Source: Clostridia bacterium (GTDB taxonomy: Bacteria > Bacillota > Clostridia > Oscillospirales > CAG-272). Taken from it: a DNA stretch of 64,000 nt. A program made the translations under genes and the position numbers. Shown piece after piece: positions 1 to 57,065 of the stretch. Numbering within the stretch: position 1 is the stretch's first letter; each line of letters begins with the position of its first letter. The notes beneath the pieces are model-generated. The model made no database searches, was not told the origin of the DNA, and was given only the letters and a program-made list of their open reading frames with translations. Location of the stretch: NCBI GenBank assembly GCA_017621415.1, contig JAGATD010000033.1, forward strand, positions 83,311 to 147,310. Reading direction: 5' to 3'.

Positions 1-719
1 GCGGCGAAACGGTTACTCCGGAAATTCCTACAGGATATCAGCCCGGAAACGGAAAGTTCTATAATGACAGAGCAAATATCACAGGCGGTTCTGTATCGGT
101 AAAGGACTTTAACGCAACCACAACAGGTATAGGTGTAAACAATTCCAACGGAACCTCTAAGGTGGTTAAAGGAGTAAGCGAGTTTAATATGAGCGCAGCA
201 TCGGATTCTTATATAAGGATAGAGAATACGACATCTCCTACCGATCTTACAGAATATATCACTGTTTCCGAATTTGATATAAAGTTCTCGGGATTTGATA
301 TAAGTGCTATGAAAACGGCAGGAAATTACCCTTACTACTTTGCATATTTCCGCATTTACAACGGCAATGATTCGGGTGCAAATTACATCAGATTTGTGCT
401 GAATGATGACGGTGAGACTCTGTCACTTGGTACAAAGAACACTGCCGAAATAAAAATGGATGAGTGGTTCAATATTAGATTTGAAATAGTTTATAACGAA
501 GACGGATCAGCAGAATTCGACATTTACATTAACGGAGAGTTTGCAACCACCGTTAAGTACGATTCATTTGTTATGAAGTGCGGTAAGACATGGATATGCG
601 CAAATAGTAAGATGTATAAATCCGAGGCTGGAGCCGAGCAAGGCACAATATATCTTGATAACATCTATTACGGACACATTTCTTCGGAATATAAGACCGA
701 AGCAGAGGAAAATAGCTAA
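1..719 (+). CDS. 3' part of a gene open from the window edge; C-terminal LamG/concanavalin-like jelly-roll module of a secreted-protein family
   Basis: Frame 3 has no stop from nt 3 to the TAA at 717-719, so the listed GTG at 162 is unlikely to be the start. Motifs DEWFNIRFEIVYNEDG..DIYINGEF..IYLDNIYYG match the module recurring in 2299..3753, 40086..45326 (x3) and 46954..49146 (x2). Confidence 0.7.
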   Translation, partial: GETVTPEIPTGYQPGNGKFYNDRANITGGSVSVKDFNATTTGIGVNNSNGTSKVVKGVSEFNMSAASDSYIRIENTTSPTDLTEYITVSEFDIKFSGFDISAMKTAGNYPYYFAYFRIYNGNDSGANYIRFVLNDDGETLSLGTKNTAEIKMDEWFNIRFEIVYNEDGSAEFDIYINGEFATTVKYDSFVMKCGKTWICANSKMYKSEAGAEQGTIYLDNIYYGHISSEYKTEAEENS

Positions 720-778: not shown

Positions 779-2032
779 ATGGAAAAATTCAGTGAAAAAT
801 GGCAGGCTCTCGAAGCCGAAGCAAACAGACGAGGCGGTGACGGGGAAGCGATAGTTGCCGCTATGAAGGACCACTACAAGATATACAGCGAGAGCATTTA
901 TCTTTGGCTTGCGGGACTTTATGATAAAAACGTGGGAGGCTTTTATTATTCCAACTCAGGAAGAGATAACGAGCCATTCCGCCCGGATATTGAATCCACA
1001 AATCAAGCGACAAACTTTATGCTCTCCTCGGGGCTTATTGATAAGCCTGAGGACCTTCCTCTTGCTATGAGAGAGCAGATGACAAAATTCTGTCAGAGCC
1101 TTATCAGCCCGACAGACGGCTACATTTACCATCCCCAGTGGGACTATAACGACCCGAATTGGAAGCAAAAAGATTCCAGAATGGGCAGAGATATGGGCTG
1201 GGCTGTAGATATGGCAAGAAAATTCAAGTTCAAGTACCCTTATCCCACCGCCAACGAAAGACTCAAGGCATCTCTTGAAAAGTCTGCGAAAAATGATGAT
1301 AAATCCAACCTTGCGCCTCATCTTCGCTCGGCTGAAGCTCTTTGGGAGTATCTCGAAACCTACAACTGGGAGACCGATGCATACTTCTCCGGTAATAACG
1401 TTGTAGCGCAATCCGGACAAATAATCGCCGCGGGGCTTAAGGATGTTGCAGTAGACTTCCTAAATAAAAAACAGAATCCCCAAACCGGACTGTGGGGTGT
1501 TCAGGGGGGCTATGTAGGAATAAATGCTCTGTTAAAAATTTCCGGTTTCTACAGAGAGGCAAAGGCGGTTATGCCCAACTCTGACAAGGCAATGCAGGCG
1601 GCAATAGATTGTATTACCTCTGACGAGGACTGCGGAACGATATGCTACCAGTATAACGCATGGTTCTCTGTAAGCAATATTCTTGAAATACTCAGAAACA
1701 TAGGCACTACGGAGGCAAAAGCCGAAGCCGAGAAGGCGCTCAAGGTGCTTTACAAGGGGGCACCCGAGGCCATAAGAGCAACTACCGAAAAGGTAAAAGC
1801 CTTTGCAAAGCCCGACGGCGCATTCTCCTATTTGCAGAAGACTAGTACAGGCTTCTCACAAAAGGCACCCGTATCAATTCATATGACTGTCGAGAGTGAC
1901 GTTAACGCAAGCGTTATTGCCAGCACCGGCACAACAAGGCATATGTACCAAGCTCTCGAACTGCAAGACTTCTTTGTTCCATTCTTTGATAAAGAGGATA
2001 GAAAAAAATTCATAGAAGCCCTTGATTATTAA
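779..2032 (+). CDS. alpha/alpha-toroid-like repeat protein (prenyltransferase/terpene-cyclase-like repeats), no signal peptide; function unknown
   Basis: 417-aa ORF. Full-length paralogue of 45352..46725 and of residues ~186-640 of 40086..45326 (shared LYD..VGGFYYSN, PD.EST.QA, NAWF, PEAI..T.EK...FAKPDG.FSY, E.DVNA). Repeated G-aromatic motifs (GGFYYS, TGLWG, DGAFSY) resemble toroid repeats. Confidence 0.75.
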   Translation: MEKFSEKWQALEAEANRRGGDGEAIVAAMKDHYKIYSESIYLWLAGLYDKNVGGFYYSNSGRDNEPFRPDIESTNQATNFMLSSGLIDKPEDLPLAMREQMTKFCQSLISPTDGYIYHPQWDYNDPNWKQKDSRMGRDMGWAVDMARKFKFKYPYPTANERLKASLEKSAKNDDKSNLAPHLRSAEALWEYLETYNWETDAYFSGNNVVAQSGQIIAAGLKDVAVDFLNKKQNPQTGLWGVQGGYVGINALLKISGFYREAKAVMPNSDKAMQAAIDCITSDEDCGTICYQYNAWFSVSNILEILRNIGTTEAKAEAEKALKVLYKGAPEAIRATTEKVKAFAKPDGAFSYLQKTSTGFSQKAPVSIHMTVESDVNASVIASTGTTRHMYQALELQDFFVPFFDKEDRKKFIEALDY

Positions 2033-2091
2033 TCTAAATGTAAAATATTGTTAGCAAAAACAAACAAAAAACAAGAGAAAGGAGTGACGGC

Positions 2092-2232
2092 ATGAGATGC
2101 AAAAAAGAAAAAAGCTTGTATCAAGCTCCGGAAATTGTGATAACAGAGCTTTATATACCCGACATTATCACCACCTCGGGACCCCTTGGCGGAGATGAAT
2201 CCGATGGCTTTGACGCAGGCGGCTGGACCTAA
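2092..2232 (+). CDS. small 46-aa ORF (MRCKKEKSLYQAPEIVITELYIPDIITTSGPLGGDESDGFDAGGWT), not in the ORF track; paralogue at 46778..46906
   Basis: ATG 7 nt downstream of AAAGGAG (2079-2085). It sits in the same intergenic slot as a second small ORF in the paralogous cassette. Shared core: Y.A.E(I/V)...(hydrophobic)..DI(I/V)TTSG, then a Gly/Asp/Glu-rich tail ending W(T/A). Confidence 0.6.
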   Translation: MRCKKEKSLYQAPEIVITELYIPDIITTSGPLGGDESDGFDAGGWT

Positions 2233-2298: not shown

Positions 2299-3753
2299 AT
2301 GAACAAAATTAAAAAGATTTTTGCTCTTAGCGCACTTGCGGTATGTCTTGCAGGTATGGTTTTTGCCTTCGGCTCTTCCGCAGGAAGTGAAAGTAAGCCC
2401 GAAATTATTTCAAAGAACGTAATGTACACCGACAAGTTTATTCTTATGTATGCCGTTGACGCAGAAACGGTGGAGGGAAATGAAGCGATCCTTAATGTTT
2501 ACGAAGAGTATCCTACAGAGACTTCTACACCCGTTTGTACATTAAAGGATACTACCACAGAGACTGTTAAAAAGGCTGACGGAAATACCCACGAATGCTA
2601 CGTATTTATTACCAACGGAATTTCCGCAACCAAATTTACCACCAATTATTACGTAACCGTAACCGACGGCAAAAATGTAAGCGATGTTGTAAGATACAGC
2701 GTTGCCGAGTACTTAAATGAGCGCCTTTACAAAAACGGCATTGTCAAGGTCACCGAGGGAGATGACTTATGGAGAAAGGAATTTTACCTTTCCACTCTTG
2801 AATTCGGTGCAAAGGCGGAGCATGTTCTGTTTAATCTTGATGATAAGGCAGAAAATGACAGAGACGACCTTGTAACCGACTATAAGTACATCTACACAGA
2901 TCTTGGAACAATTGACGGATTTTACTCGGGCATTTATGCTCCCGGAACAGAGGTTGATGTTACTTACACAGGAAGCGATTCCAATGTTAAGGGCTGGACT
3001 GTTGAAAACCTCCAAAGCGGTAAAAAGGAATTTCTTGCCAGCGGCGCAAAGCTGACAGTTAGCGCAGGCTATTATTTGGAGCCAAACACGTTAGGAACTG
3101 TGTTCGAATTCGGCAAGGGCATTTATTACAATGATACAGCAGTTACAAGCGCTGCAAGATTTGATTACAGCAGTATGATAAGCATATCCGGATATATGAC
3201 CCGCTCTCTTGTAGACGGAACATTTAAGGCGACAAAGCAGACCGATCCCTCCACGGGACTTTGCTATGCGTCAGAAGCAACTGTATATGGTGCGGATAAT
3301 GCGGTTAGTGATTCTGTGTATACAGCAATGACAAATCCTGCGCTTGTATTTGAAACGGACATTATGTTTGATGGTTTTGACAATGATACCATATCAAATA
3401 TAATGGTCAGATTTAACGGTCTTGGCAAGCAAAACAGATTCTACCTTACAACCGACGGTGAGAAAGTAACACTTTCAGGTACTAACTTAAGCCTTGAGAT
3501 CGGTGAGTGGTACAACCTTAGATTTGAGTTTTATAAGGTCAGCGACTCCGGAGATAACGGAACTTATGCAACAAAGATTTACGTAAACAACGTATATGTA
3601 GGAACAAAAACTCCTACCACAGATGCAGGAACATCCCCATCGTTCCGCTTCAGACTTTATATGACAAAGGATGCATTGGCTCCCGACTCAACATTCTATC
3701 TTGATAATACTTTCTACGGATACGTAGATAAAGCTTATGTTGCGGGTCAGTAA
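2299..3753 (+). CDS. secreted protein with N-terminal beta-rich region and one C-terminal LamG-like jelly-roll module
   Basis: Start moved to ATG 2299 (MNKIKKIFALSALAVCLAGMVFAFGSSAG signal peptide; GGAAAAG upstream); the ORF-track start is 2239. The N-terminal region is homologous to that of 46954..49146 (YSVAEYLNERLYKNG vs VSVGHYLYTKLYKEG). C-terminal motifs GEWYNLRFEFYK..IYVNNVYVG..FYLDNTFYGY. Confidence 0.8.
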   Translation: MNKIKKIFALSALAVCLAGMVFAFGSSAGSESKPEIISKNVMYTDKFILMYAVDAETVEGNEAILNVYEEYPTETSTPVCTLKDTTTETVKKADGNTHECYVFITNGISATKFTTNYYVTVTDGKNVSDVVRYSVAEYLNERLYKNGIVKVTEGDDLWRKEFYLSTLEFGAKAEHVLFNLDDKAENDRDDLVTDYKYIYTDLGTIDGFYSGIYAPGTEVDVTYTGSDSNVKGWTVENLQSGKKEFLASGAKLTVSAGYYLEPNTLGTVFEFGKGIYYNDTAVTSAARFDYSSMISISGYMTRSLVDGTFKATKQTDPSTGLCYASEATVYGADNAVSDSVYTAMTNPALVFETDIMFDGFDNDTISNIMVRFNGLGKQNRFYLTTDGEKVTLSGTNLSLEIGEWYNLRFEFYKVSDSGDNGTYATKIYVNNVYVGTKTPTTDAGTSPSFRFRLYMTKDALAPDSTFYLDNTFYGYVDKAYVAGQ

Positions 3754-4758: not shown

Positions 4759-6372
4759 ATGCAAGAGAATTTTATCAGTCTTCTTTATCCGAACGAGAAT
4801 TCCCGGGATGCTCATGCCGACGGAAAGTCTCTTCCCAATATATCCGATGATGTTTGCTATGAGCTTGGACTTGAAGAAATATTTGACCTTAAGTGCGGCT
4901 CGCTTTCGAATTTCTTTACTAAAGACGAAGAAGTTATAGCATATAGGCAAAGAACTCTAAATGACGTTGTTGAAATTCCCGAGCTTAGCAAAACGCTTTC
5001 TGCGGTTACACCTATTCTCGAAGATATAAATGAGCTTCGCCGTCTTGATATTGAGACAAATGCTTCCGGAGAGTCCTACCTCTATAGCATAACAGAAATC
5101 GAGCTTTATGTTTCCTGCATTGATACTCTTTCACGTGGGCTTTCTCCCGTGCGTGAAAAAATAAAGAGCGAGGCATTCTCTGCTCTTGCGGATTTTGCGA
5201 TAAAGCTTTCACAGTCGGAGTATTACAAAGAGCTTAACAAAAGTCTTGAATCCCTTGCATCAAGAGTTCACGAGGTAAGAAGCATTACGGTAGGAGTAAA
5301 CCTTGATAACCAGCTCCGCCCCGCATCTGCAGGTGTTATTTCGATAAATTCCGAGCAGTTCAAGTCGGGAAAGGTGCTTGATAAAATTCTTCGTTTTTCG
5401 TTCAAGAATGATGCTTTTACCTGTATTGCGGACCTTTCTCCTTTTGGAAAGGGTCAAAGCGAGAATAGGCAGGAGGCGCTTGTAGGTGCTTTCAACTCGG
5501 CTATTGAGGAGGTCTTCCGCAGTTCTGTAAAGGGTTGGAGAGCGGTTGTCGGAGAGTATGTTCTTGACAGTACGGATTTTCTTCTACGTCTTCTTCCTGA
5601 AATTGAGTTTGTAACCAAATCGGCAGAGCTTGTGTCAAAGCTTTCGTCACACCCGGGCTGCAGGATGACCGTGCCTAAGATTTGCCCTAAGGAGGAGCGG
5701 GCATTCCGCGCCGTAGGCATATACAATCCCAGGGTCGCACTGGCAATTGACGATGAAATTGTTACAAACGATTTTATGTTTGACGATGATGCTCACATTT
5801 ATGTTCTTACAGGACCTAACCGAGGCGGAAAGTCTGTTATAACCGTCGCCGTGGGAGCTTCTCAAGCTTTATTCCAGCTTGGACTGCCTGTTCCGGCTGA
5901 GTCCGCGGAGCTTTCGGTCGTTGATGCAATATTTACTCATTTCCCCGAGGGGGCTGATGACACCATTGATAAAGGGCGTCTCGGTGAGGAGTGCGCAAGA
6001 CTTAAGGAAATATTTGATTCTGTAACACCCGACAGTATGATACTTCTTGACGAGTCTCTATCGTCAACCGGTGCATACGAGGCATCGTATATCGCGTCTG
6101 AAATTCTTTCGGGATTTGCTGTGCTTGGGTGTCGCGGAATATTCTCGACCCACCTTCACGAGCTTGCGGCAAGTGTTCCCGAGATAAACAAGCGCTCAGA
6201 GGAGCTTGGCGGAATAAAAATAGATACCTTAGTCGCAGGTATCGAGGAGGGACGCCGTTCGTTTAAAATATACAGGGCAAAGCCTGACGGTAAATCATAT
6301 GCCCGAGATATTGCCGACAAATACGGTCTGTCCTTTGACACCCTTATGCAAAGAATCGGAAAGGGCGATTGA
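4759..6372 (+). CDS. MutS-family ATPase (domain V type) lacking an obvious mismatch-binding N-terminal domain and Smr domain
   Basis: Walker A TGPNRGGKS; MutS signature region ILLDESLSSTGAYEASYIA..FSTHLHEL. Start chosen at ATG 4759 (GAAAGG RBS) rather than the TTG at 4720. Confidence 0.8.
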   Translation: MQENFISLLYPNENSRDAHADGKSLPNISDDVCYELGLEEIFDLKCGSLSNFFTKDEEVIAYRQRTLNDVVEIPELSKTLSAVTPILEDINELRRLDIETNASGESYLYSITEIELYVSCIDTLSRGLSPVREKIKSEAFSALADFAIKLSQSEYYKELNKSLESLASRVHEVRSITVGVNLDNQLRPASAGVISINSEQFKSGKVLDKILRFSFKNDAFTCIADLSPFGKGQSENRQEALVGAFNSAIEEVFRSSVKGWRAVVGEYVLDSTDFLLRLLPEIEFVTKSAELVSKLSSHPGCRMTVPKICPKEERAFRAVGIYNPRVALAIDDEIVTNDFMFDDDAHIYVLTGPNRGGKSVITVAVGASQALFQLGLPVPAESAELSVVDAIFTHFPEGADDTIDKGRLGEECARLKEIFDSVTPDSMILLDESLSSTGAYEASYIASEILSGFAVLGCRGIFSTHLHELAASVPEINKRSEELGGIKIDTLVAGIEEGRRSFKIYRAKPDGKSYARDIADKYGLSFDTLMQRIGKGD

Positions 6373-7235
6373 TGATGAAAACTGTAATTGGAATAGATGT
6401 TGGAGGCAGCACAACTAAGATTGTGGGCTTCCGTATAGAAAAGGGGTGCTGCGAGCTGATAGAGCCGCAGATAGTTAAGGCTAATGACCCCATAACTGCG
6501 ACATATGGCGCTTTTGGAAAATTTACTGATGAAAACAATCTGAAGTTTTCTGATATAGCCAAGGTTTATATGACAGGTGTAGGCTCTGCCTACATTCGCA
6601 AAAATCTTTACGGTCTCTCTTGCGAGAGAGTAGAGGAATTTAACAGTATAGGACAGGGCGGACTTTATCTTTCGGGCCTCTCTGAAGCCTTGGTTGTGAG
6701 CATGGGTACAGGTACTGCTATGGTACATGCAAAGGCAGATGGAAAAATGACCTACCTTGGCGGTACGGGTGTCGGCGGCGGTACTCTTATGGGACTTTCA
6801 AAGCTTATGCTCGGCGCTGAAACCGTTGAACACATTATCGAATATGCCGAGGAGGGCAGCCTTGATAACATAGACCTGAAAATCAAGGATATGACCGCTG
6901 ACGATTCGCTCACGGCATTGTCTCGCGACCTTACCGCAGCTAACTTCGGAAATGTATCCGACCTTTGCACAAAAAACGATATTGCTATCGGAATTCTCAA
7001 TCTTGTTTTCGAGACGGTGGCTATGGTATCTGTTTTTGCCGCCAGAAGCGTTGGTGTATCTGACATTGTGCTCACAGGAAGCATAACTCAGCTGGCTCTG
7101 TGCCGTAAGAAGTTTGAGGAGCTTAATGCTATGAATTACGGTGTTAAATTCCATGTTCCAGAGCGCTCAAGGTATGCAACAGTCATAGGTACGGCTATCA
7201 GAGCTATACCGTGTGAGTACTGCGAGGTAAATTAA
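6372..7235 (+). CDS. coaW: type II pantothenate kinase-like (Fumble/CoaW family, ASKHA fold)
   Basis: GIDVGGSTTKIVGF phosphate-1 motif, GTGTAMV, GGTGVGGGTLMGL, IVLTGS. The start overlaps the upstream stop (TGATG). Confidence 0.65.
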   Translation: MMKTVIGIDVGGSTTKIVGFRIEKGCCELIEPQIVKANDPITATYGAFGKFTDENNLKFSDIAKVYMTGVGSAYIRKNLYGLSCERVEEFNSIGQGGLYLSGLSEALVVSMGTGTAMVHAKADGKMTYLGGTGVGGGTLMGLSKLMLGAETVEHIIEYAEEGSLDNIDLKIKDMTADDSLTALSRDLTAANFGNVSDLCTKNDIAIGILNLVFETVAMVSVFAARSVGVSDIVLTGSITQLALCRKKFEELNAMNYGVKFHVPERSRYATVIGTAIRAIPCEYCEVN

Positions 7236-7237
7236 CC

Positions 7238-7660
7238 GTGAACATTCTACGCTTTATGGTTCCGAAAAGTTTGGTTGAATACCTGACGGAGGACCTTACT
7301 TTCAGGCAGGCGCTTGAAAAAATGAGATATCACAGATATGCCGCAATTCCTGTTCTCGACAGCGAGGGCAGATATGTCGGAACTCTTCGCAACGATGACG
7401 TATTGCGATTTATCTTGGAGCTTTCGGAATTCAGTCCCAAGGCGGCAGAGAAAATTTCGCTCTCCTCGCTTATGGATTCCAAGAGTGTAAAGCCTGTTTA
7501 TCATAATGCTTCAATGCAGGAGCTTATCGAACAGATAAAGGAGCACAATTTTGTTCCGGTTGTTGATGATAGGGGCTGTTTTATCGGCATTATACTTAGG
7601 CGGGACGTTTTAAATTATTTGTTGGACTTTTATAACGAAAATGACGGGGGTAACCAATAA
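7238..7660 (+). CDS. CBS-pair protein, CbpB/YkuL-like
   Basis: 140 aa, two CBS motifs (HRYAAIPVLDSEGRYVGTL; HNFVPVVDDRGCFIGIILRRDVL). GTG start preceded by GAGGT. Confidence 0.7.
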   Translation: MNILRFMVPKSLVEYLTEDLTFRQALEKMRYHRYAAIPVLDSEGRYVGTLRNDDVLRFILELSEFSPKAAEKISLSSLMDSKSVKPVYHNASMQELIEQIKEHNFVPVVDDRGCFIGIILRRDVLNYLLDFYNENDGGNQ

Positions 7661-10600
7661 TGGCAGAAAAGAGAGAAAAACCTATTGTAGGTAAGGTTGG
7701 TGCTGATAATAAGGCGGACCTTGCCGCAAGGCTGAATGCTGCCTCGGGCAATATTGAACGTGTAAGCGCTGATACTGTTGCCCGCCAGACTGAGCAAAAG
7801 AAGAATTTGAAAAAGAGTGAAAGCGACGCCAGGGCGAGAGCCAGGGGGTCCGAAAAGCAGCTGGTTGCGGATAACAAACGCAGAGACGACGAGGCTGCCA
7901 GGAGACTTGCTGAGCTGGAGTATGCTGAGGATTATAGAAAAAAGCTTCAGCGTGACCGCAAGCGCGCCATGGCGGAGGCAAAGGAGGCTAAGGAGGCTGC
8001 TGAGGCAAAGGCTCGTGAAGAGAGAAGCCGACAGATAGCCGAAATGCTTGAACAGGAGCGCCGAGAGGCAAGGGAGAGAGGCGAGAGAGCCGATGCTCTC
8101 CTTAGAATGCTGGCGCGCCGCGACGCGTCTGAAGTGACAGAGGAAGCACCCGAGCAGCGGAGTACAACTGAAAGCGCCTCCGAGGATACGGCTAATTCCT
8201 TTGAGCCGTCAGAGGCAGCTGCTAACGAAGAGATTTCCGACGCAGTAGCCGAAGCTGTTGTCGATAGCGCTGTAAATGAGGATAACGAATATGCCGAGAA
8301 TACGGTGTCCGAGGAAAGTGAGGAGGCCGCACCCCCGGCAGCCGAATCATACTCTGAGGCTATAGCGTCGTACGAAGAGCCTGTGGCAGAAGCCGAGCAG
8401 ACAGAAAAAATAATCATAGATGTCAAGGATGACAGACTGCTTCTGAACATCGGTCCCGATGGCAGCTTTTACTCAATTGAGGATCCGAAAGCGGAGGGAA
8501 GCAAGACTGAGCAGCGCGAAGAGGTTGTAGGCGAATATCCCGACCCCAAGCTTTCGTCTGATCCTGTCGTTGCCGCAATTCAAACCCTTGGCAAGAGTGT
8601 TTACAGCACATCAACCTATCGTAAGTATGTTGACAAGAGCCGTGCGGCTATAAAAGAGTTTAAGAGAATTTCTGCCGATGCGGCGCAGAATGCGTCTATC
8701 GGAAGCATAGATGAGGGCGCAGCAGGCGCTGCTATGGTGCAATCTATCAAAGCGGCGGGACGAATTGTTGAGATAAGATGTGACAATCTCCGTCTTGCGT
8801 CAAAATTCGGTCAGAAGAGCGTAGGAGATATTTCAGACGAGCTTCATAAGGATATTGACAGGTACAATTCAAGAGCATCTGAGTTTACTGCCTATACCGG
8901 CGAGAGACTTACACGCATTTCAACAGCTCTTCCTGCGAGAATTGCCGACGGTACGGGCCTTGAGGTTGTTCCTGAGCTTACATACGATGAAAGATACATT
9001 GAGTACAATGGCGAATACAGCGGTGAACGAACAAGATCTTACGTTATAACAATAGGATCTCAGGATGAAGAGCCCAGCGTTACACGCGAACGATCTAAGG
9101 GTGTTTCCGGAACATATATTGTAAATCCGATTATTCCCGAACTTACCGCAGAGGAGCTTCTCAGAGGCACATATGTATACGATACAGAGTCTTACGAGAG
9201 CTATCGCTATGTGGTTAAGAACGCAGGCCGTGCTATCGAACGTGCAATCAAGGATATCTCCAGAGGTATAAGCCTTGCAGAACGCGAAAACACAAAGCTT
9301 GCGGGTCGTCTTGAATATCATCGCAAGAGCATTGAAAAGCTGCTCGAAAATATGCAGCTTAAGATAGATGATGCAAAGGACGTAATGTTCAGAAAAACTC
9401 TTGCTGTGCTTGAGGGAAAGAGAGCTAAATACGAAAGGGACGAGAAAAAGCTCGAGCTTAACCGTACTTACATTGAGGACGAGAACAGAAAGCGCAGCAT
9501 AACAGTTAGTACATTTGCGCTAAGACGTGAAAAGCTTCTTCTTGCGTTCAATACGCTTTCTGCATCAACCGTTTCTGACAAGGCAGAATATGTTGAGAAA
9601 GCCAAGGCAGAGCTCATTGCCGAAATGGGTCTTTATAACAAGGCGGCAGAGGATTGCTCTGTTGCAATAGGAATTCCCGTAAGTCCTGTCAGCGCAAGCC
9701 TTGCCGACGAGATTATCGAGGGTAAAACTTGTGTGGATATACCCAGAATAGCTATTCTTAAGGAGCTTGTTGAGACTGTTGGCGAGGAGTCCAGAGTTAT
9801 CGGCAGGTGTGAAAACACATCAGGTGCTGCAACATGTACCTTTGTTATCAAGGGACAGCAGTCTGAAAAGAGTGAAAAAACCGTTGGCGGTGTAAAGCGC
9901 CGTTCCGGAATAAAGACGGTTCACGGACATTTTTTTATCGGTGGTACGGCATCTAACGGCGGAGCCTTAAGCGGTGATGCCGGATGTGCCGATGCTCTCG
10001 TAACAGGAGCTATACTTGCAGGACCTATGATATCTGCAGGCGGTGGCGATGGAGTTGATCCCGGCGCGGCAGCAGCTACAGCATTGGCATTCGGAACCGC
10101 AGCAAGAGCCTCGGGATTCCCGAGTGTTATAAGCGCCGCTTCGGATAACGGTGCTGTCGGCAGCTCTACTGAGGACATCGGATACGATGCAACTCCGGAG
10201 ACTGTTGAGACCGCTCCCGAGTCTGTTGCAGTGCCCGAGGCGGTCTCTGCGGCTGCGTTAACAGCACAACCCGCCATTGCTTCAGAAGCAGCGTCGGTTG
10301 CAGAAGCAGCACCTGTCGAGGAGGTTGCTCCTATTGCGGATGTTGAGCCTATTGCGGATATTACACCTGCTTCGGAAGCAGCACCCGATGGCTCGGAATT
10401 TGCGTTCACACCCGGTGTGTTTGGATTCGAAAATCAGCCTGAAGATACAGAGGAGTTGCTGTCTGCTGTTCCTGAAGAAAACATAGAGATATCCGAGGCA
10501 GCGAACGAAGCGTCTATCCCAGAGAATTTTGAAGCGCCCGCGTTGGAAGAGTCGGTGATAGAGGAAACACCCATTATTGAAGATATTCAGCCCCTCGAAG

Positions 10601-13014
10601 AGTTTGCGGATGAAGCGGCTGTCGAGGAGAGCTTCTCGGCAATGCCCGAGCAGGCTCCCTCGTTCAATATTGAAAAAACCGATGACTCTTCGTTTGATAT
10701 TGCGGATGAGGCTGACGTGGCTTTTGATAATGCTGAGACTCAGGAGCCTACTGATATTTCCGAGGCTCCGATAGAGGAGATTTCTCCTAAGAAGCTTGTC
10801 AAGACGGTTCGCAATGCTGACGGCGGCGAAACAGTTTCTGAAGAGCCTTATACCGAGGAGCTTGTTGATGACGGCGACGGATTTGATTCTGAGCAGTCCG
10901 GCGAAGAAGTCTCAGACGAGATGTATAGCGGACTTGAGCCTGTCGATATGACCGGCGGTGATGAGACTGCAAAGGGTAAAAAGCTAAAGCTTGTTCAGCT
11001 TCCTCCTCCTGAGGGTGCAGATGGAGCACAGGACGCAGAGCAGGGAGAGCTTACGGATGATGGCATGGGTCCTGTATATCCCGGAAATATGATAGAGCAT
11101 TCCGATTCGGACAAATATGCAGACCCTGATGACCTCTCATCTCTTCCCGACGTTATTGAGATAGACGATAGCGCTGATATTACCGAGGGAGATGTTCTTA
11201 CCAATCCCACAAAGCGCGGTCTTAAGAAGCATTTGGCTTATATTTCCAGAAAAGTCAAGAGAGCTGAGCATGAGCGCTCGCGTCTTATTCGTCTTAAACG
11301 TGCTGAAAAGAGTGTTGTACCCAAGGTTAAGTACATAATTTCCATACTCGGTATTCAAAAAGAAATAATTGATTGGTACTGTAATGCTCTTTCGTCTGCG
11401 TGTGACGTAGGTGTAAAGAAGAAAATCAGGAAAATTGCGACAAGGCTTCGTTCGGAGCTTAAGCGCTATAACAAGTTCGTTAAGGAATATGAGCACATAA
11501 CCGATGACCGTCTGACAAGAGCTTCTCTTGAAATTCCCGCATGCATTATTGATGGCGAGGATTATCCGATTATTCCTAAGGTAAAGCTTCGAGAGTTTGA
11601 GGCTCCTGAAAACGGAGTGGTATATGAGGACGGTATAACCGAAATTGCCGACGTTGATGTTGATTTTTCTGACAATGTCATAATGACAGAAAAGGATCTT
11701 AAGCGCCGTCTTCGTGAAAGCTCAAGAGAGCTTGCAAGACTTCATAATGAGCTTGATAGAAAGTCAAGAGATAAGCACAACGCTTGGGGAATTGATAAGT
11801 CTGTCCTTGTAGCAGAATGCTTTGCTATAGAGAAGAAGATTATTGACAATTTGGCAGCCGATCTTCACGCCGCATGTCAGGTTTCAGCGGTAAAGGATAT
11901 TCAGTCTGTCAAGAAGGATCTTGCATACGAAATAAAGCAGTATAACCGTCTTGTCAGCGAGTATAGAGCGGCAACAGGAAATGTTCTTACTCCCGCGTCA
12001 GACAGTATTCCTCAGGATATTATCGCCGGTAAGCTCTATTCTCCCATTGCCAAGGTTGGCTGTATACATAATGCCGATGATGATCTTGAGGCTGAAATCG
12101 GCTTAATGTCACGCAATACTTACGGTGTTGAGGATGATGACATAAGCGAGGCAGGACGCGCTGCTTTCAGATCTAATGTTATTGCTCAGGCTAACAAAGA
12201 TTTCACATTCATCACGCGCCGTGCGGATTATCGAATCAGTATGCTTGAGAGCGAGAGAGATATGCTGGAATATAGATTCGGCAAGGAGTCATCTCAGGTA
12301 AAGCGTGAGAAAAAGGCAATTACAAAGCTTATCGAGCAAATAAAAGCAGAGCACAAGGCTGCTCTCCGTTATGAGAATAGCGACAACAGACGCTATTATG
12401 CAGCTGTAACAGCTAACCCCAGAACTATGACTCTGCGTAACAGAAGAGCAGACAGAACAAGAATTGCTGCTCTACGTTCAAGAATTATCAGTCTTCTTAA
12501 CGAAAGAGATTTGATAAACGGTAAGCTTATGGCTCTTTATGGCGGTGAGGGCGAGGGAACTCTCGGAAGTATAAATCAGACCTTCCGCCGTGTTAAGAAT
12601 AACGCAGCAGCAAAGTCGAAGAAAAAGCAGAAGAGTCTTGCTAAGGTAGTAAAATCACTTCCTATTACAGTTAAGGATAAGGAAAGATTCTACGATCTTA
12701 TGAACAAGAAGGTGGATGCTGAGTCGACTATTGCCTTTGTTAAATACCGTATGAAGAAGGGTAAACTTCACAAGGCAGATATGCTTTGTGCTAAGCGCGA
12801 CATAAAGGAGCTTAAAGCAAAGGTAAGCCGTATAGAAAAAGATATCAAGGACCTTATGAAGAGCGTTAAGCAACGCATATCAGAGGTAGAGTCAGGTTCA
12901 ACATGGCTTGTTGCATTTATGTTTGTGCTTGTGCTTATCGCCGCAGGAATTGCGCTTTATGTTTATTTCTTCGGTGACAGCATTACGCAAATGCTGAATA
13001 TCTTCAGCTCATAG
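7660..13014 (+). CDS. 1784-aa tail-anchored protein: charged coiled-coil N-terminus, four ~125-190 aa internal repeats, Gly/Ala-rich segment, ~350-aa acidic Pro/Glu/Ala low-complexity region, C-terminal TM helix
   Basis: ATG overlaps the CBS gene stop (TAATG). One hydrophobic helix sits near the C-terminus (WLVAFMFVLVLIAAGIALYVYFFG). The four repeats end in YN....E(F/Y)....TG..LT..S..IP..I(I/A).G. Confidence 0.8.
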   Translation: MAEKREKPIVGKVGADNKADLAARLNAASGNIERVSADTVARQTEQKKNLKKSESDARARARGSEKQLVADNKRRDDEAARRLAELEYAEDYRKKLQRDRKRAMAEAKEAKEAAEAKAREERSRQIAEMLEQERREARERGERADALLRMLARRDASEVTEEAPEQRSTTESASEDTANSFEPSEAAANEEISDAVAEAVVDSAVNEDNEYAENTVSEESEEAAPPAAESYSEAIASYEEPVAEAEQTEKIIIDVKDDRLLLNIGPDGSFYSIEDPKAEGSKTEQREEVVGEYPDPKLSSDPVVAAIQTLGKSVYSTSTYRKYVDKSRAAIKEFKRISADAAQNASIGSIDEGAAGAAMVQSIKAAGRIVEIRCDNLRLASKFGQKSVGDISDELHKDIDRYNSRASEFTAYTGERLTRISTALPARIADGTGLEVVPELTYDERYIEYNGEYSGERTRSYVITIGSQDEEPSVTRERSKGVSGTYIVNPIIPELTAEELLRGTYVYDTESYESYRYVVKNAGRAIERAIKDISRGISLAERENTKLAGRLEYHRKSIEKLLENMQLKIDDAKDVMFRKTLAVLEGKRAKYERDEKKLELNRTYIEDENRKRSITVSTFALRREKLLLAFNTLSASTVSDKAEYVEKAKAELIAEMGLYNKAAEDCSVAIGIPVSPVSASLADEIIEGKTCVDIPRIAILKELVETVGEESRVIGRCENTSGAATCTFVIKGQQSEKSEKTVGGVKRRSGIKTVHGHFFIGGTASNGGALSGDAGCADALVTGAILAGPMISAGGGDGVDPGAAAATALAFGTAARASGFPSVISAASDNGAVGSSTEDIGYDATPETVETAPESVAVPEAVSAAALTAQPAIASEAASVAEAAPVEEVAPIADVEPIADITPASEAAPDGSEFAFTPGVFGFENQPEDTEELLSAVPEENIEISEAANEASIPENFEAPALEESVIEETPIIEDIQPLEEFADEAAVEESFSAMPEQAPSFNIEKTDDSSFDIADEADVAFDNAETQEPTDISEAPIEEISPKKLVKTVRNADGGETVSEEPYTEELVDDGDGFDSEQSGEEVSDEMYSGLEPVDMTGGDETAKGKKLKLVQLPPPEGADGAQDAEQGELTDDGMGPVYPGNMIEHSDSDKYADPDDLSSLPDVIEIDDSADITEGDVLTNPTKRGLKKHLAYISRKVKRAEHERSRLIRLKRAEKSVVPKVKYIISILGIQKEIIDWYCNALSSACDVGVKKKIRKIATRLRSELKRYNKFVKEYEHITDDRLTRASLEIPACIIDGEDYPIIPKVKLREFEAPENGVVYEDGITEIADVDVDFSDNVIMTEKDLKRRLRESSRELARLHNELDRKSRDKHNAWGIDKSVLVAECFAIEKKIIDNLAADLHAACQVSAVKDIQSVKKDLAYEIKQYNRLVSEYRAATGNVLTPASDSIPQDIIAGKLYSPIAKVGCIHNADDDLEAEIGLMSRNTYGVEDDDISEAGRAAFRSNVIAQANKDFTFITRRADYRISMLESERDMLEYRFGKESSQVKREKKAITKLIEQIKAEHKAALRYENSDNRRYYAAVTANPRTMTLRNRRADRTRIAALRSRIISLLNERDLINGKLMALYGGEGEGTLGSINQTFRRVKNNAAAKSKKKQKSLAKVVKSLPITVKDKERFYDLMNKKVDAESTIAFVKYRMKKGKLHKADMLCAKRDIKELKAKVSRIEKDIKDLMKSVKQRISEVESGSTWLVAFMFVLVLIAAGIALYVYFFGDSITQMLNIFSS

Positions 13015-38927: not shown

Positions 38928-39659
38928 TTATATTTGGCTCTCAGAGCTCATTTTGTATTTTCTGGGAGACATTCCGAAATGGGACTTAAAGGTTTTTGAA
39001 AAATATGCCATATCAAGGAACCCGCATTTTTGCGCAATTTCATTTACCGAAAGCTCGGTAGAGAGAAGCATATCTCCCGCATTTTTTATTCTCACGTGAT
39101 TTAGGAATTTTACAGGGGGCATTTTGGCAACCTCAAGAAATTTGCTTCTGATATAATCCTCAGCATAGCCGCTGGCGCGCATAAGATCGCCCGCTCTCAG
39201 ATGAGGGTCGCCATATCTGTCTTCCATTATGGAAATAATTCTGTAAATTGTGGAATACACATCCTTTGCGTACTCGGTGCGCTTCATAAGAGCAAAACGG
39301 ACAAGGGCATTTATGCAGGCATTTGCATAAGCCTCGTTCTCCAAAGCGTAGCGCAGGGCTGTCTCAGCGAGCATTTTTGCTTCGCCAAACTCTGTGTCGT
39401 GAGTTTCATAAATATCGGTCAAAAAGGTGAGGTTATCAAGGTGCTCACCTATAGAAATTATTCTGTGAGAGATTTTTGAACGGGTTGCATGAGGAACATT
39501 CGGCGGTGCAATAAAAAGGCATCCCGGAGAAAAGGGAATTTCTCCGTACTGGGTGATAAGTGAGCCCTCGCCCTCCAGGACAAACATTATTTCGTGATGT
39601 GGGTGGGTGTGCATTGGCCTAAAGTTAACATTAGGCGCCGTGACCTGTGCGTACAACAT
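38928..39659 (-). CDS. AraC-family transcriptional regulator with N-terminal cupin sensor domain
   Basis: Cupin HTHPHHEIMFVLEGEG; C-terminal AraC HTH LSVNEIAQKCGFLDMAYFSKTFKSHFGMSPRKY. Confidence 0.85.
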   Translation of the reverse strand: MLYAQVTAPNVNFRPMHTHPHHEIMFVLEGEGSLITQYGEIPFSPGCLFIAPPNVPHATRSKISHRIISIGEHLDNLTFLTDIYETHDTEFGEAKMLAETALRYALENEAYANACINALVRFALMKRTEYAKDVYSTIYRIISIMEDRYGDPHLRAGDLMRASGYAEDYIRSKFLEVAKMPPVKFLNHVRIKNAGDMLLSTELSVNEIAQKCGFLDMAYFSKTFKSHFGMSPRKYKMSSESQI

Positions 39660-40085: not shown

Positions 40086-43000
40086 ATGAAAAAATTAAAT
40101 TTTTTAATTGCTTCTATGATACTTTCGCTTGCTGTGCTTGCTTCCTGCACAGGTGGTGAAAGCGAGGATAGTAAAAACAACCCGGGCGGCGGTCAAGAGG
40201 GAGAGACAGCTTCTATTGCGATAATCTTCCCCAATACCGAAAACAGTAAGGTTACAGACAGTTTTTATGAATTTTATTATGCGCTTGGAGACCTTACAGG
40301 AGCAACACCTGAGCTTATCGGTGCAACCGACAGTCGGCGAGAGAGGGAAATCATTTTCGGCAAGAGTGAGCGAGATGTATCTGTTGAGGCTTACCGCAGA
40401 CTTGAAAGAATAGATCTTTCTGATGAGGATATAGATGCTAAAAATCCCAGGGTGCTTATCTACTCTGACGGAAAGTCTGTTGCGGTGGCATATGAGGAGT
40501 GCGAGGATGATGTTGCGCTTATTACGGCTATCGGCATACTTAATGAGAAAATTTCTTCCTTGTATCCTACCACGCAATCGGGCGTTTTACATAAAGAGGT
40601 TGTAAGCCTCGATAAATACTATCAGGCTATTGATGATAAAATGATTTCTGAAAAATGGGCAGCTCTCGAAGACAAGATAGGCGGAACTCTTGGAAAAGAC
40701 ATTGTATCCGCTATGAAAGGGTTGTATTCGCTTTATTCTGATGACCTCATCTCCTGGTTTGCAAACCTTTATGACCCGGCGGTAGGCGGATTTTATTATT
40801 CAAATTCCGCGAGAAATACCGATGGCTATCTTCCCGATGCAGAAAGTACAGAGCAGGCGTTGCGTTTTATTAACACATCGGGCATGATTGAGGGTGTAGC
40901 CGACAGCTATGCAAAGGCCCTGCCGGAGGAGATAGGCGAGCAAATAGTTAACTTTATATACAATCTCCAGGACTCTAACGGATATTTCTATCATCCCCAG
41001 TGGTCAAAAGAGGCGGTAGATAACAGAGTATCCCGCCGTTCAAGAGACCTTAGCCACTGTGTATCAATACTTTCTGCCTACGGTGTGGCTCCCCAGTATA
41101 AAACTCCGTCGGGTGTTGACACCGAGAATGCAGAGCCTGTATCATTCGTTAATCTTACAGGTCGGCTTAGAGCATCTGCTGTTAGCGCGGTTTCGAAAAT
41201 CATTGCGGCCTCAGACTCGGAGGTTGCCGTTGACCCTAATCTTAAGGATGACGTAAGCTTCCGCAAATATCTTGACAGTCTTGATGTACAAAACAATTCA
41301 TACAGCGCAGGAAACACACTTACCGCATTTTTCAGCGAGATAGAGTATAGAGACAGTGTTTTGCAGGAGCAGAATGTTGGTTACTCGCTTGTTGATATAA
41401 TGATAGAGCATCTCAACTCAAAGCAGTTCGAGCATAACGGCCTCTGGCACAAGGAGACTAATTACTACGCAGTAAACGGACTTATGAAGATAAGCGGTGT
41501 TTACTCAAAGGCGGGAGTTCCTATTCCCAATTCCGAGAAGGCTACAAGAGCCGCCATGGATGCCATAACCTCCGAGGAGGAAGCGGGCGCTGTAACCGAT
41601 ATTTATAACACATGGTTCGCAGTCAGCCGTATGTTCAATATTATGACAAAGTATGGCGGTGCAGAGGGAGAAGCCCTCACTGAGACAATGAGAGCCGAGC
41701 TGCTGGCAAAAGCACCTGAGGCTATCAAGACAACGGCTGAAAAATTTGCGGCATTCCTTAAGGAAGACGGCTCATTCTCCTACACTCCTATGTATTCTTC
41801 CAAGAACTCTCAGGGTATGCCGGTTGCTGTTCCAAACAGTGTCGAGGGAGATGTAAACGCAACCGTAATTTGCAGCTCTGATGTTCTCGGTTACATATAT
41901 AGCGCTCTTGGTCTTAGCGATTATAAGGTTCCTATGTGTACATACAACGATTGGAGACATTATAAGGCGATTCTAGAAAATCTTGGACCCGTAATAAAGG
42001 ATACTGAGGATCCTATATACGAGCCGATAAGCTTTGACGATCAATCCCTTGACCAGGAAGAGATATATATAGAAAATCTTACGTTCTCCGAGCGCTCAAA
42101 GGCTGCGGGCGGCGGAGTATCTCTTATCGCTGACCCGAGAGAGGGCTATACTGGAAATGTTCTCAAGGTAACATCTATCACAGGAACAAGCGATTCTATT
42201 GATATAAGCTCGCCCAATCTGTCTCACGCATTTTCTTGCTTCGCTTTTGAGGGAGATTTCTGTCTTGTTTCATCAAATACCGATTTCCCTGTAAGATTTT
42301 CGATAGGTGATTGCTACATTGTATCATTGAAGATATCCGACGGCCACATAAGGCTTGTACAGTCCACCTCGGGAACGGCAAGCAAGTCTCAGGACACAAT
42401 TCTCTGCGACGGACCTGCGCTTGGCGAGTGGTTCAGCTTTAAGGTAGAGTATTACAAGGGCGACCATAACACAGTGCGTATAAAGTTCTATTTTGACGGT
42501 GACCTCACAGACGGTAAGGCGCTTAAGCTTGTTGCTGTAACCGACGGATACTGCGACCCCGAGGGCTTAAAGTTTACCGAGGGCTTTGGCGAGCCGGCTA
42601 CACAGTATCATAGCACTAACCTTTGGTTTATGAAAGGGTATGATATTGTAATGCTTATGGATAACGTAGCATCCTATAAGTCAAACGATATCTACAGGAA
42701 ATATACCGATACAAAAAATCCCCTTAAGCTTAATGTTGATGCGCCTATCCCCGAAGCAGGAGACGATGCGTCAGGCATTCCCGCTTATACAGATACCTAT
42801 TATAATCTTGCGGAAGTAATAGGATCAAGATACGACTATTCTCAAAATCTCGCAAAGGATAGTATATTCAACAAGAAGTACGATAGCGAGACAGATAAAT
42901 CCACCGTCTCACTCCCAACAGTTACAGGTGTTTCGGGCGGAAAGCTTAATGTATCAAACCTCTCTAACTGGACAGCATTCGCTATCGCAAACCTTTCGGA

Positions 43001-45326: not shown

Positions 45327-45351
45327 TTTATCGGTACGAGGATTTTTGAAG

Positions 45352-46725
45352 ATGAAAAACGAAAAATATTATAAGGCTCTTGCCGACAAGGTTGGCGGTG
45401 AGCAGGGAATAAAAATAGCCGAGGCTATAAGAGATATGTACACTCTCTACAAGCCCGAAATGATAGACTGGTTTGCGAACCTTTACGACCCGGCAGTTGG
45501 CGGATATTATTATTCTAACGGCGCAAGAGATAACGAAAAAATTCACTACCAGGGTGTCAGCTACGACCTGCGCCCCGATACCGAGTCTACCGAGCAGGCT
45601 CTGAGGTTTATCAGCACCTCGGGTCTTCTCGGAGACGGAACGCTAAAGGAAAAGCTCCCCGCCTGGATGCAGGAGCAGATAGTAAGGTATATTAAAGGGC
45701 TACAGGACCCTAACGGATTTTTCTATAATCCCCAGTGGCCTAAGGAGCTTACCGACTCAAAGCTTTCAAGAAGAGCCAGGGACCTTAGCTGGTGCGTGTC
45801 TATTCTTGAAAACCTAGGCTCAGCGCCCACATACGATACCCCAACAGGGGTAAAGGGCGACGGACTTGACATAGACGGCAAACCCATTAAAGTCATTGGT
45901 GAAAGCTCCTGCACCGAGAGGGAAGAGGGGCCTAAAAGCTCGGTTGCGATACCAAAAGAGCTTGAAAACAAGGAAAGCTTCATTAATTATTTAAATTCCC
46001 TCGACATAAAGCACGAGTCCTACTCGGTAGGTAATACGCTGACAGCAATTGCAGGGCAGATAATTTACAGAGACAGGGAGCTTGAAGCTGCGGGAGCTGA
46101 CTATTCGCTCAGAAAGATTGTTATCGACTGGCTTAACGAAAACCAAAATCCCGAAAACGGACTCTGGCACGAGACCGCAAACTATTACGGAGTAAACGGT
46201 CTTATGAAAACCAGCGGAGTTTACGGCAAGATAGGGGTGCTGATGCCCCATGCCGACAAAGCGGTGAAATCCGCCATAGATGCTATAAGCACAGACCAGA
46301 CTCCCGGAGCTGTAACCGATATTTACAATACTTGGTTTGCGGTTACAAGAATTAAGCGACATTTGCGTACCTACGGCGGCGACGAGGGGCAGAGAATGGC
46401 AGATAAAATAGTCGAGGACCTAATAAAAATGGCTCCCGAGGCTATAAGAATTACCAAAGAAAAGCTTTCGGTATTCGCTAAGCCCTACGGCTCATTCTCT
46501 TACACTCCTATGGCATCGGCAGGCAGGTCACAGGGAATGCCTGTTACCTTTAGAGGCGCCTATGAGGGCGACGTTAACGCAACCATAATCTGCTCATCTG
46601 ATATTCTCGGATATATGTATTCTGCACTTGAATTGTCTGATGTGAGAGTTCCTATATATTCTCCCTTGGACTTCGTAAGATACATTGAAATTCTTGAGAA
46701 AAACAGGGCTAAAATTATTGGTTAA
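45352..46725 (+). CDS. alpha/alpha-toroid-like repeat protein, no signal peptide (paralogue of 779..2032 and of the toroid domain of 40086..45326)
   Basis: Collinear similarity to the lipoprotein toroid region over the whole length (WFANLYDPAVGG(Y/F)YYSN, STEQALRF, NGLWH.E.NYY.VNGLMK.SGVY, GAVTDIYNTWFAV, GSFSYTPM, EGDVNAT(I/V)ICSSD(I/V)LGY). Confidence 0.8.
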   Translation: MKNEKYYKALADKVGGEQGIKIAEAIRDMYTLYKPEMIDWFANLYDPAVGGYYYSNGARDNEKIHYQGVSYDLRPDTESTEQALRFISTSGLLGDGTLKEKLPAWMQEQIVRYIKGLQDPNGFFYNPQWPKELTDSKLSRRARDLSWCVSILENLGSAPTYDTPTGVKGDGLDIDGKPIKVIGESSCTEREEGPKSSVAIPKELENKESFINYLNSLDIKHESYSVGNTLTAIAGQIIYRDRELEAAGADYSLRKIVIDWLNENQNPENGLWHETANYYGVNGLMKTSGVYGKIGVLMPHADKAVKSAIDAISTDQTPGAVTDIYNTWFAVTRIKRHLRTYGGDEGQRMADKIVEDLIKMAPEAIRITKEKLSVFAKPYGSFSYTPMASAGRSQGMPVTFRGAYEGDVNATIICSSDILGYMYSALELSDVRVPIYSPLDFVRYIEILEKNRAKIIG

Positions 46726-46777
46726 ATAAAAAGAGCGCAACAAAAAACAAAATAAATTAAATTGAAAGGAGACTTTT

Positions 46778-49754: not shown

Positions 49755-49801
49755 GAGGCGCACTCCGTAAGGACGTGCGCCTCGAAAGAAGGGCTTTTTT
49801 A

Positions 49802-56556: not shown

Positions 56557-56605
56557 AACTTTTTCTCCTTTCAATATAAAAACAAACGTCAGTAAAATAG
56601 CAATT

Positions 56606-57057: not shown

Positions 57058-57065
57058 AAACTCAT

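Follow-up and report, generated by a model that had tools for sequence, protein, structure and literature searches.

Two small genes in a 64,000-nucleotide stretch of DNA from a Clostridia bacterium (Oscillospirales, CAG-272; contig JAGATD010000033.1, positions 83,311 to 147,310; hereafter the window) encode peptides of 46 and 42 residues, each composed of a conserved N-terminal box and a variable acidic tail. Both belong to a large Clostridial family whose relatives adjoin genes of the linear polyphosphorylated peptide (LPP) pathway, a pathway for peptides that are made on the ribosome and modified after translation (RiPPs). Each of the two lies in a cassette with a toroid protein (T), a secreted protein (J) and a giant protein, in the second cassette a lipoprotein (G). 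The peptide gene is linked to secreted proteins that carry an unannotated domain, here called module X, and the tail of the peptide is mimicked by the C-terminus of a neighbouring anchored protein. We consider it somewhat more probable than the reverse that these are LPP-like precursor peptides, in which the box serves for handling and the tail is a docking motif shared with G and probably read by module X. The two genes and their parts are:

2092..2232, plus strand: peptide gene 1, 46 residues, MRCKKEKSLYQAPEIVITELYIPDIITTSGPLGGDESDGFDAGGWT
2080..2084, plus strand: ribosome-binding site of peptide gene 1, AGGAG, 7 nt ahead of the ATG
2092..2178, plus strand: conserved N-terminal leader-like box of peptide 1 (residues 1–29), with Y10-x-x-P13-x-I15 and D24-I-I-T-T-S29, compared below with the LppA leader
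2179..2229, plus strand: variable acidic Gly-rich tail of peptide 1 (GPLGGDESDGFDAGGWT), the proposed docking motif
46778..46906, plus strand: peptide gene 2, 42 residues, MEKLKEFYEAAEVEVVLFEFSDIVTTSGWVDPPGEGDIGDWA
46766..46771, plus strand: ribosome-binding site of peptide gene 2, AAGGAG, 6 nt upstream of the start
46778..46858, plus strand: box of peptide 2 (residues 1–27)
46859..46903, plus strand: tail of peptide 2 (GWVDPPGEGDIGDWA)

A sequence-only reading of this DNA had proposed the 46-residue open reading frame (ORF), with its AGGAG 7 nt before the ATG, as a real small protein and had pointed to the second ORF in a paralogous cassette. The ORF, its ribosome-binding site and the paralogy of the second cassette are all confirmed. 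The pattern said to be common to the two peptides is there as well: they align over their N-terminal 27 residues (BLASTP E = 1e-6), and both carry a penultimate Trp. That reading had also named a frame test, by which a conserved DNA or RNA element could be told from a peptide. When a profile built from homologs was run against all six-frame segments of the window, only the two peptide frames matched (E about 1e-25; next E > 4), and no Rfam family lies over either peptide-gene site; the similarity is thus at the protein level. The 14 close homologs (41–60 residues) differ by amino-acid substitutions and in-frame indels only. Compared with orthologous DNA (L125–L130), the peptide gene has a dN/dS of 0.08–0.42 at a dS of 0.35–0.69, and loci whose toroid gene is merely 47–59% identical still hold a gene of the same pattern with 40–52 codons. 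NCBI carries a near-identical 46-residue ‘hypothetical protein J6B48_03870’, flanked by the toroid gene (_03865) and the gene downstream (_03875). Taken with the ribosome-binding sites, these observations establish both small ORFs as real genes that are conserved in their sequence, in their ribosome-binding site and in where they lie. As had been stated, a signal peptide is lacking, but the accompanying claim that it lacks Cys does not hold for peptide 1, whose C3 (MRCKKEK) is kept in its close orthologs. Neither Pfam nor NCBIfam assigned a family to either peptide or to T, J or G. PDB sequence searches with T, the PqqD-like protein of relatives, the peptide profile and module X returned no match, and nothing relevant was found in the literature on the peptide motifs (DVITTSG and similar; ELPFVP and similar).

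The family is large. A HMMER search of 1.84 billion representatives (clusters at 50% identity) returned at least 1284 cluster representatives at E <= 1e-3, and the best 150 members are nearly all 33–70 residues long. Long matches of 2809, 1254 and 280 residues, considered as fused forms, were rejected as eukaryote-like tandem repeats. A degenerate DNA pattern for the N-terminal box, scanned on GTDB genomes, gave at least 125 matches in at least 119 stretches; among the matches listed, every one lies inside an ORF of 28–69 residues, and almost all are from Clostridia (Lachnospiraceae, Oscillospiraceae, Ruminococcus, a few cultured strains). Cultured carriers of the family are Anaerotaenia torta DSM 100431, Porcipelethomonas ammoniilytica and Clostridiales VE202-01. 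Members outside the Clostridia label, found in a metagenome-assembled genome (MAG) labelled Prevotella sp. (L006), in Coriobacteriales (L019) and in Bacilli (L067), may be due to contamination in binning or to genuine lateral spread. One genome can hold several copies at separate loci, as with the two in the window and with locus pairs from one MAG.

The box contains a beta-strand run. Its consensus is K, Y-x-x-[P/A]-x-[ILVM], E, I/V, V/I, x, F/L, any three residues, then D-[IV]-[IV]-T-[T/A]-S, and it is close to invariant at Tyr (151 of 154 sequences) and strictly so at Asp and Ser (154/154 each). The tail is hypervariable and mostly acidic (20% Gly, 19% Asp and 7% Trp in the family sample), and in many relatives Ser and Thr are confined to the TTS box. 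Two variants stand apart. Cys-rich tails are found in L022, P0170, P0203 and P0238 (e.g. ...TTSCSVDVNDWGCGNDGQSCWDYDLG), which suggests other core chemistries on the same N-terminal box. A longer subfamily of 63–69 residues (L014, L054, L056, L084, L110, L117, L122) has tails that end in ...YGAYNW, ...GSYTW or ...STYGW; at six of its loci a conserved protein of 214–230 residues without a Pfam family (cluster 7) is encoded directly upstream.

LPP RiPPs were reported from Bacilli in May 2026 (Popov et al., Nat Commun 2026, PMC13381572). Their core genes encode a discrete PqqD-type RiPP recognition element (RRE), an archaeal-type SpI peptidase, an HprK-like kinase, a PF14907-type NTP transferase as well as an MsbA-like exporter. 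The LppA precursors combine a conserved leader, YxxPxVLxHQxIxFET|xxS, with variable C-termini; LppB, the RRE, brings the leader to LppS, the SpI-like peptidase, and LppK polyphosphorylates core Ser3. The phyletic distribution of LPP systems is patchy and conflict-like. In the supplementary table of that study, the SpI and RRE pairs of Clostridia appear in sequence similarity network (SSN) clusters 4 and 9, with no precursor given (PMC13381572).

The same five-gene set lies downstream of the peptide gene in at least 14 of the 52 loci with at least 4 kb of downstream sequence, a fraction that, like all context fractions here, is a lower bound, the pattern-scan loci being 8-kb blocks uncentred on the match. 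The set consists of an HprK-like kinase, a PqqD-family protein (PF05402, 44 bits, above the Pfam cut-off), a 150-residue signal-peptidase-I-like (S26-like) protein, an MsbA-like ABC exporter and a PF14907 nucleotidyltransferase (E = 9e-42); loci that carry such genes include L064, L050, L079, L027, L085, L023, L012 and L109. The Clostridial peptidases score 68–103 bits to the Ruminococcus SSN-cluster-9 enzyme of PMC13381572 and 11–34 bits to LppS. Because relatives adjoin the LPP core genes and their peptidases are homologous to the cluster-9 enzyme, the peptide family is most simply an unrecognised precursor set of a Clostridial sister of LPP. The earlier suggestion of a processed or modified peptide therefore holds in spirit, with RRE, SpI-like peptidase, HprK-like kinase, nucleotidyltransferase and exporter genes adjoining relatives, though not with the toroid as the modifier.

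The likeness to LPPs extends to the detectable homology of the Clostridial peptidases and RREs to LppS and LppB and to the number of precursor genes, one to three per locus. The Clostridial box runs ..EIVEFxxxDVITTS and departs from the LppA leader (..VLxHQxIxFET|xxS) in both spacing and sequence. Clostridial tails are short and acidic (8–20 residues), whereas LPP tails are long, basic and rich in Gly, Asn and Pro, and the Clostridial enzymes fall into the SSN clusters 9 and 4, for which PMC13381572 lists no precursor. The window genes have no such enzymes beside them; their neighbours are a secreted protein with module X, a toroid protein and a giant lipoprotein. Pro to Ala replacement is frequent in the toroid/J/G subfamily to which they belong, and tail mimicry of a neighbouring surface protein has not been described for LPPs.

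The leader also resembles that of lasso peptides ([Y/W]xxPx[L/V/I], with Thr at −2), and cores of 15–17 residues with an acidic residue at positions 7–9 would fit a ring from Gly1 to Glu7 or Asp9 in peptide 1, or to Glu8 in peptide 2, with Trp as the plug. The paeninodin- and pseudomycoidin-type lasso peptides of Bacillota use RRE-dependent recognition of a [Y/W]xxP leader, which the loci described here presumably share, and like these loci they have tailoring genes for an HprK-like kinase and a nucleotidyltransferase as well as an ABC exporter. Unlike those systems, the related loci scanned encode neither an asparagine-synthetase-like macrolactam cyclase nor a B2 transglutaminase-like cysteine peptidase, and a linear product is expected. 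The associated peptidase is SpI-like, as in linear LPPs, and only 47% of the family have Gly directly behind the TTS box, a position often taken by Asn, Asp, Ile or Pro. In the window itself the proteins scanned in general include no such cyclase or B2 peptidase, no dedicated search having been made there. A lasso precursor is hardly credible on these grounds and was dropped as a candidate. A further parallel is offered by the Nif11/NHLP-type leader families, in which many scattered precursors are served by one export and processing system. As in those families, one conserved leader-like region is joined to very diverse C-termini, with several copies per genome at different loci; the leader, however, is unrelated in sequence, and there is neither a C39-peptidase ABC transporter nor a Gly-Gly cleavage motif.

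The constant partner of the peptide gene is a secreted protein with module X, represented in the window by J1 and J2:

2299..3753, plus strand: J1, secreted, 484 residues, with a signal peptide, module X, a small beta domain and a ConA-like jelly roll
about 2404..2838, plus strand: module X of J1 (residues 36–180), a beta-sandwich with two helices, pLDDT > 90
46955..49146, plus strand: J2, secreted, with module X near its N-terminus and two jelly-roll regions
about 47134..47463, plus strand: module X of J2

Module X is an unannotated, Ig-like-plus-helical (hairpin) domain of ~105 residues with no relative in Pfam or among PDB sequences. It was matched to the N-terminal domain of J by hhalign (91% probability, E = 1e-6); its hidden Markov model (HMM) recovers J1 (E = 3e-14) and J2 (E = 8e-13) and no other protein of the window. 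The jelly roll of J1, which the sequence-only reading had correctly assigned to a secreted protein, has PL36 alginate lyase and legume lectins as Foldseek matches. Across the family, 43 of 104 peptide genes start 0–200 nt (median about 20 nt) after the gene of a large secreted protein that ends in X-X, i.e. whose last ~250 residues are formed by this module pair. The N-terminal parts of these proteins vary (e.g. alpha-amylase with CBM26, BspA-type LRR).

It is this protein, not the toroid, that the peptide gene tracks. The gene order is G-T-pep-J in the window and pep-J-T-G in L003 and L097, so that J stays adjacent to the peptide gene while the toroid does not. A peptide gene was found in 5 of 50 metagenomic toroid loci, each time directly upstream of a module-X protein, and tracking of the toroid was rejected on these 50 loci in favour of module X. 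The earlier idea of an accessory to the adjacent secreted proteins is partly supported by this linkage.

A further property of the peptides is the recurrence of their tails at the C-termini of anchored proteins encoded nearby. In the window the relevant proteins are:

40086..45326, plus strand: G2, a 1746-residue lipoprotein (lipobox LASC) with a toroid domain, jelly rolls and a deacetylase-like region
about 45276..45323, plus strand: last residues of G2, GAPDSGDISGDWTEN (C-terminal end PDSGDISGDWTEN), which resemble the tail of peptide 2
1..719, plus strand: G1, a giant protein of which the window holds the C-terminal part, the rest lying beyond the left end; G1 ends with a jelly roll and has no Trp tail

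The tail of peptide 2 ends in ...PPGEGDIGDWA, in which GDIGDWA matches ...GDISGDWTEN at the C-terminus of G2. The G proteins of L005, L010 and L141 likewise have acidic GW C-termini like those of their own peptides (...MSGDGWSTPNLN, ...NVGDTDWT and ...HDDEGWTKENG, respectively). In other subfamilies the peptide gene is followed by that of a Pro/Thr/Glu-rich ‘stalk’, which is a lipoprotein or otherwise anchored in the membrane, and it is the C-terminus of the stalk that repeats the peptide tail:

L027: peptide tail GELPFVPAE, neighbour C-terminus IELPFVPAF
L045: peptide tail PNQTPWG, neighbour C-terminus PNQTPWG
L077: peptide tail DLPDDLF, neighbour C-terminus QLPEDSFF
L089: peptide tail PEGEEIEI, neighbour C-terminus PEGEEIDPFQ

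In a permutation test, 10 of 116 same-locus pairs (8.6%) reached a score >= 24, as against 0.6% of cross-locus pairs. The identical motifs differ at synonymous sites (5/21 nt in L027, 3/21 nt in L045), which led us to reject recent DNA duplication as their source; the tail matches are kept by selection at the protein level. A module-X protein is present in all nine tail-matched loci that have an upstream flank (9/9). Of note, several of the stalks, encoded at 4872..5357 in L064, 2854..3360 (minus strand) in L027, 1702..2121 in L109 and elsewhere, are short anchored proteins in which long Pro/Thr/Glu linkers lead to the C-terminal motif of the adjacent peptide, e.g. ELPFVP(A/F).

These observations bear on another RiPP interpretation, that the peptide is a conventional bioactive product (an antimicrobial or a diffusible pheromone) whose neighbours are incidental or merely co-regulated. 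Such a product would be in keeping with a leader joined to a hypervariable core, with tandem precursors in some relatives (three copies in L009), with the dedicated exporter and peptidase genes at related loci, with the Cys-rich cores of a few relatives and with the patchy, conflict-like distribution reported for LPP systems (PMC13381572). It does not account for a tail motif that is systematically common to the C-terminus of the neighbouring anchored protein and maintained by selection, nor for the tight, directional adjacency of the peptide gene to module-X proteins, and the tails are short and acidic, without features of known bacteriocins. We regard this interpretation as unlikely.

If the peptides are instead LPP-like precursors, the N-terminal box (about 27–29 residues) would be a handling element, by analogy with LppA. 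In relatives, a PqqD-type recognition protein (RRE) presumably binds the box via Y-x-x-P-x-hydrophobic, and the HprK-like kinase presumably phosphorylates its invariant Ser; the TTS box would be the only possible acceptor in many relatives, since it holds their sole Ser and Thr. The SpI-like peptidase would then cleave in or just after D-[IV]-[IV]-T-[T/A]-S, and the ABC pump would export the peptide. The tail (15–17 acidic Gly-rich residues in the window, ending G/D-W-T/A) would be the working part and probably acts as a short docking tag, a linear motif that would be displayed twice, on the C-terminus of the anchored lipoprotein G and on the free peptide. Module X of J, encoded immediately downstream, is most likely the reader of the motif, as the partner that stays the same from one subfamily to the next. 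The free peptide could act as a competitor of the anchored motif or could form a second, modified anchor. For this organism, all steps after translation (processing and export, the cleavage site and Ser phosphorylation) are carried over by analogy.

A number of observations weigh against this reading. The RRE, SpI-like peptidase, HprK-like kinase, PF14907 enzyme and MsbA-like exporter are all missing from the 64-kb window in phmmer searches with the proteins of relatives. For the window copies we make no claim to membership of LPP proper, since the gene neighbourhood that defines it was looked for and is absent locally. The Pro of YxxP is present in peptide 1 (Y10-Q-A-P13-E-I) and replaced by Ala in peptide 2 (Y-E-A-A). 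Within the toroid/J/G subfamily, 11 of 17 peptides have another residue in its place (10 Ala, 1 Cys), as against Ala in 1 of 20 relatives linked to a biosynthetic gene cluster (Fisher p = 2e-4, for lineages that are not independent). Since a P-13A change weakens RRE binding in the Bacillus-type system (PMC13381572), the subfamily may have left the RRE pathway or become independent of it. The peptide family gives no significant alignment to LppA, and the spacing of its leader differs from YxxPxVLxHQxIxFETxxS; homology to LppA is suggested by motif logic and gene context. On the docking side, the binding of module X to the tail is a proposal drawn from sequence, the Trp tail is missing from G1 and from the G proteins of L001 and L003, and the uncentred loci give lower bounds for the gene linkages. 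The sole other module-X protein among the 50 toroid loci, a 1238-residue J-T-G fusion in L178 (1474..5190, plus strand) that joins a signal peptide, module X, a toroid and jelly rolls, has no peptide gene upstream. Finally, L010 encodes (5317..7380, minus strand) a toroid homolog fused to an N-terminal HTH_3 (XRE) and an SRA-like domain. The toroid of this DNA-binding protein may be its sensor domain, and the fusion keeps a cytoplasmic toroid–peptide pairing alive.

The toroid proteins and the regulator of the second cassette are:

779..2032, plus strand: T1, a cytoplasmic (alpha/alpha)6 toroid of 417 residues with no Pfam family
45346..46725, plus strand: T2, the second toroid protein, with ATG 45352 as the likely start
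38928..39659, minus strand: AraC-family regulator, divergent from G2

The fold that the sequence-only reading had assigned to 779..2032 is borne out by an AlphaFold2 model of T1 (pLDDT 94), an (alpha/alpha)6 toroid. Its Foldseek neighbours are weak (TM about 0.4; range 0.3–0.45) and mixed, comprising class II terpene cyclases, GH76, GH88/105, C3d and LanCL2, the last as the 41st match (E = 0.39, TM 0.33). Toroid, J and giant (G) neighbours occur together in 3 of the 119 pattern-scan loci listed, all three with peptides that have ...GW... tails.

A pairing of T with the peptide in the cytoplasm would make the peptide an unprocessed, unexported subunit, inhibitor or signal, which possibly binds the toroid of G before export. 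T has no signal peptide and is encoded directly upstream of the peptide gene in both window cassettes, and the numerous Arg, Lys and aromatic residues that are invariant in T could accommodate an acidic peptide with Trp. The loss of the YxxP Pro in the toroid/J/G subfamily and the absence of the five LPP-type genes from the window are also compatible with a peptide that stays inside the cell, and the HTH_3 fusion of L010 is built as in ligand-sensing regulators. RRNPP systems pair a propeptide secreted by Sec or PptAB with a cytoplasmic receptor of HTH and tetratricopeptide repeats; here the peptide lacks a signal peptide, the toroid is not a tetratricopeptide repeat fold (TM about 0.1 to Rgg2), and one toroid homolog, that of L010, is fused to HTH_3. 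Against the pairing with T, J sits between the peptide gene and T in L003 and L097, 45 of the 50 toroid loci show no peptide gene (many of these contigs being short), most of the peptide superfamily is without a toroid, and the same tail is present on the extracellular C-terminus of lipoprotein G. A cytoplasmic partner of T is thus an improbable identity for the peptide.

The sequence-only reading had further mentioned, for a modified peptide, that the toroid fold is that of LanC cyclases and protein prenyltransferases; the toroid would then modify the peptide as a LanC-like cyclase or a prenyltransferase-like enzyme, e.g. by Trp prenylation as in ComX. The confirmed toroid fold, the presence of class II terpene cyclases and drimenyl-diphosphate synthase among the best Foldseek matches, with LanCL2 in the list, and the Trp conserved near the peptide C-terminus all fit such an enzyme. 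But the structural matches are weak, and GH76, GH88, GH105 and C3d are equally good; no Pfam prenyltransferase or LANC_like family matches the toroid, and no neighbour matches a polyprenyl-synthase family. The window tails contain no Cys, most tails of the family lack a pattern of Cys, Ser or Thr for lanthionine, and no ComP-like kinase is found among the window proteins scanned. Toroid loci are mostly without a peptide gene, and lipoprotein G carries the same toroid as a domain outside the cell, where no prenyl diphosphates are available. This part of the earlier reading is not supported, and a toroid that modifies the peptide is very unlikely.

The AraC-family regulator at 38928..39659 may control cassette 2, and AraC genes flank the cassette in L005 too. 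Given these regulators and the polysaccharide-lyase-like and deacetylase-like regions of G, the cassette looks like a carbohydrate-directed surface system.

A broader interpretation, which is possible and put forward tentatively, starts from the LPP-like precursors and places them in a hitherto unrecognised surface-assembly system of gut Clostridia. In it, module X would dock onto a C-terminal motif that is presented both on an anchored stalk or giant lipoprotein and on a peptide of an LPP-type RiPP pathway. The peptide could be a soluble competitor (release factor) or, when phospho-modified, a second anchor, and the GW-tailed peptides, J and the GW-tailed lipoprotein G of the window would be one version of the system. 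Cohesin–dockerin pairs offer a functional analogy, and no more than that: large secreted carbohydrate-active proteins (alpha-amylase with CBM26) end in a conserved non-catalytic module, and a membrane-anchored stalk of the same locus presents a matching element. The differences are that the proposed ligand is a C-terminal motif of 6–10 residues and not a folded calcium-binding dockerin, that a free peptide version of the ligand is also encoded, that module X has no sequence relative in Pfam or PDB and that the binding here is a proposal. No cohesin or dockerin Pfam family matches J, G or the module-X proteins.

What is new with respect to the known LPPs is the linkage to an unannotated module on secreted proteins and the likeness of the tail to the C-terminal end of a surface protein encoded nearby. 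Small genes without annotation, very numerous in Clostridia of gut and rumen, gain a recognisable class, most simply as the missing precursors of LPP-pathway relatives. Module X is defined as a new protein module, along with a series of short motifs. Tail mimicry and module-X linkage would give the pathway a concrete role, the organisation of large carbohydrate-active proteins on the cell surface. If the surface-assembly interpretation is true, this would be the first biological role for LPP-type RiPPs.

Several other features of the window lie outside the two cassettes:

49680..49755, minus strand: Gut-1 RNA (RF01706, 54.9 bits with a gathering score of 50), roughly 530 nt downstream of J2
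56643..56879, minus strand, and 57064..57293, plus strand: divergent T-box leaders (112 and 94.5 bits)
52643..55156, minus strand: 837-residue fusion of a xylose-isomerase-like TIM barrel and an AMP-binding (adenylating) enzyme
7660..13014, plus strand: 1784-residue, highly acidic, coiled-coil-like protein

The Gut-1 RNA sits between the cassette and a xylose-isomerase-like TIM-barrel gene. One of the T-boxes precedes a LeuA/HMGL-like gene (55153..56574, minus strand), and the other precedes tandem proteins composed of a helix-turn-helix (HTH) domain, a cupin and an AMP-binding enzyme (57443..59710 and 59860..62145), an architecture that is unusual behind a T-box. The 837-residue fusion gene adjoins PHP-domain, histidine-phosphatase and second TIM-barrel genes. 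The acidic coiled-coil-like protein has a C-terminal hydrophobic segment and no Pfam family.

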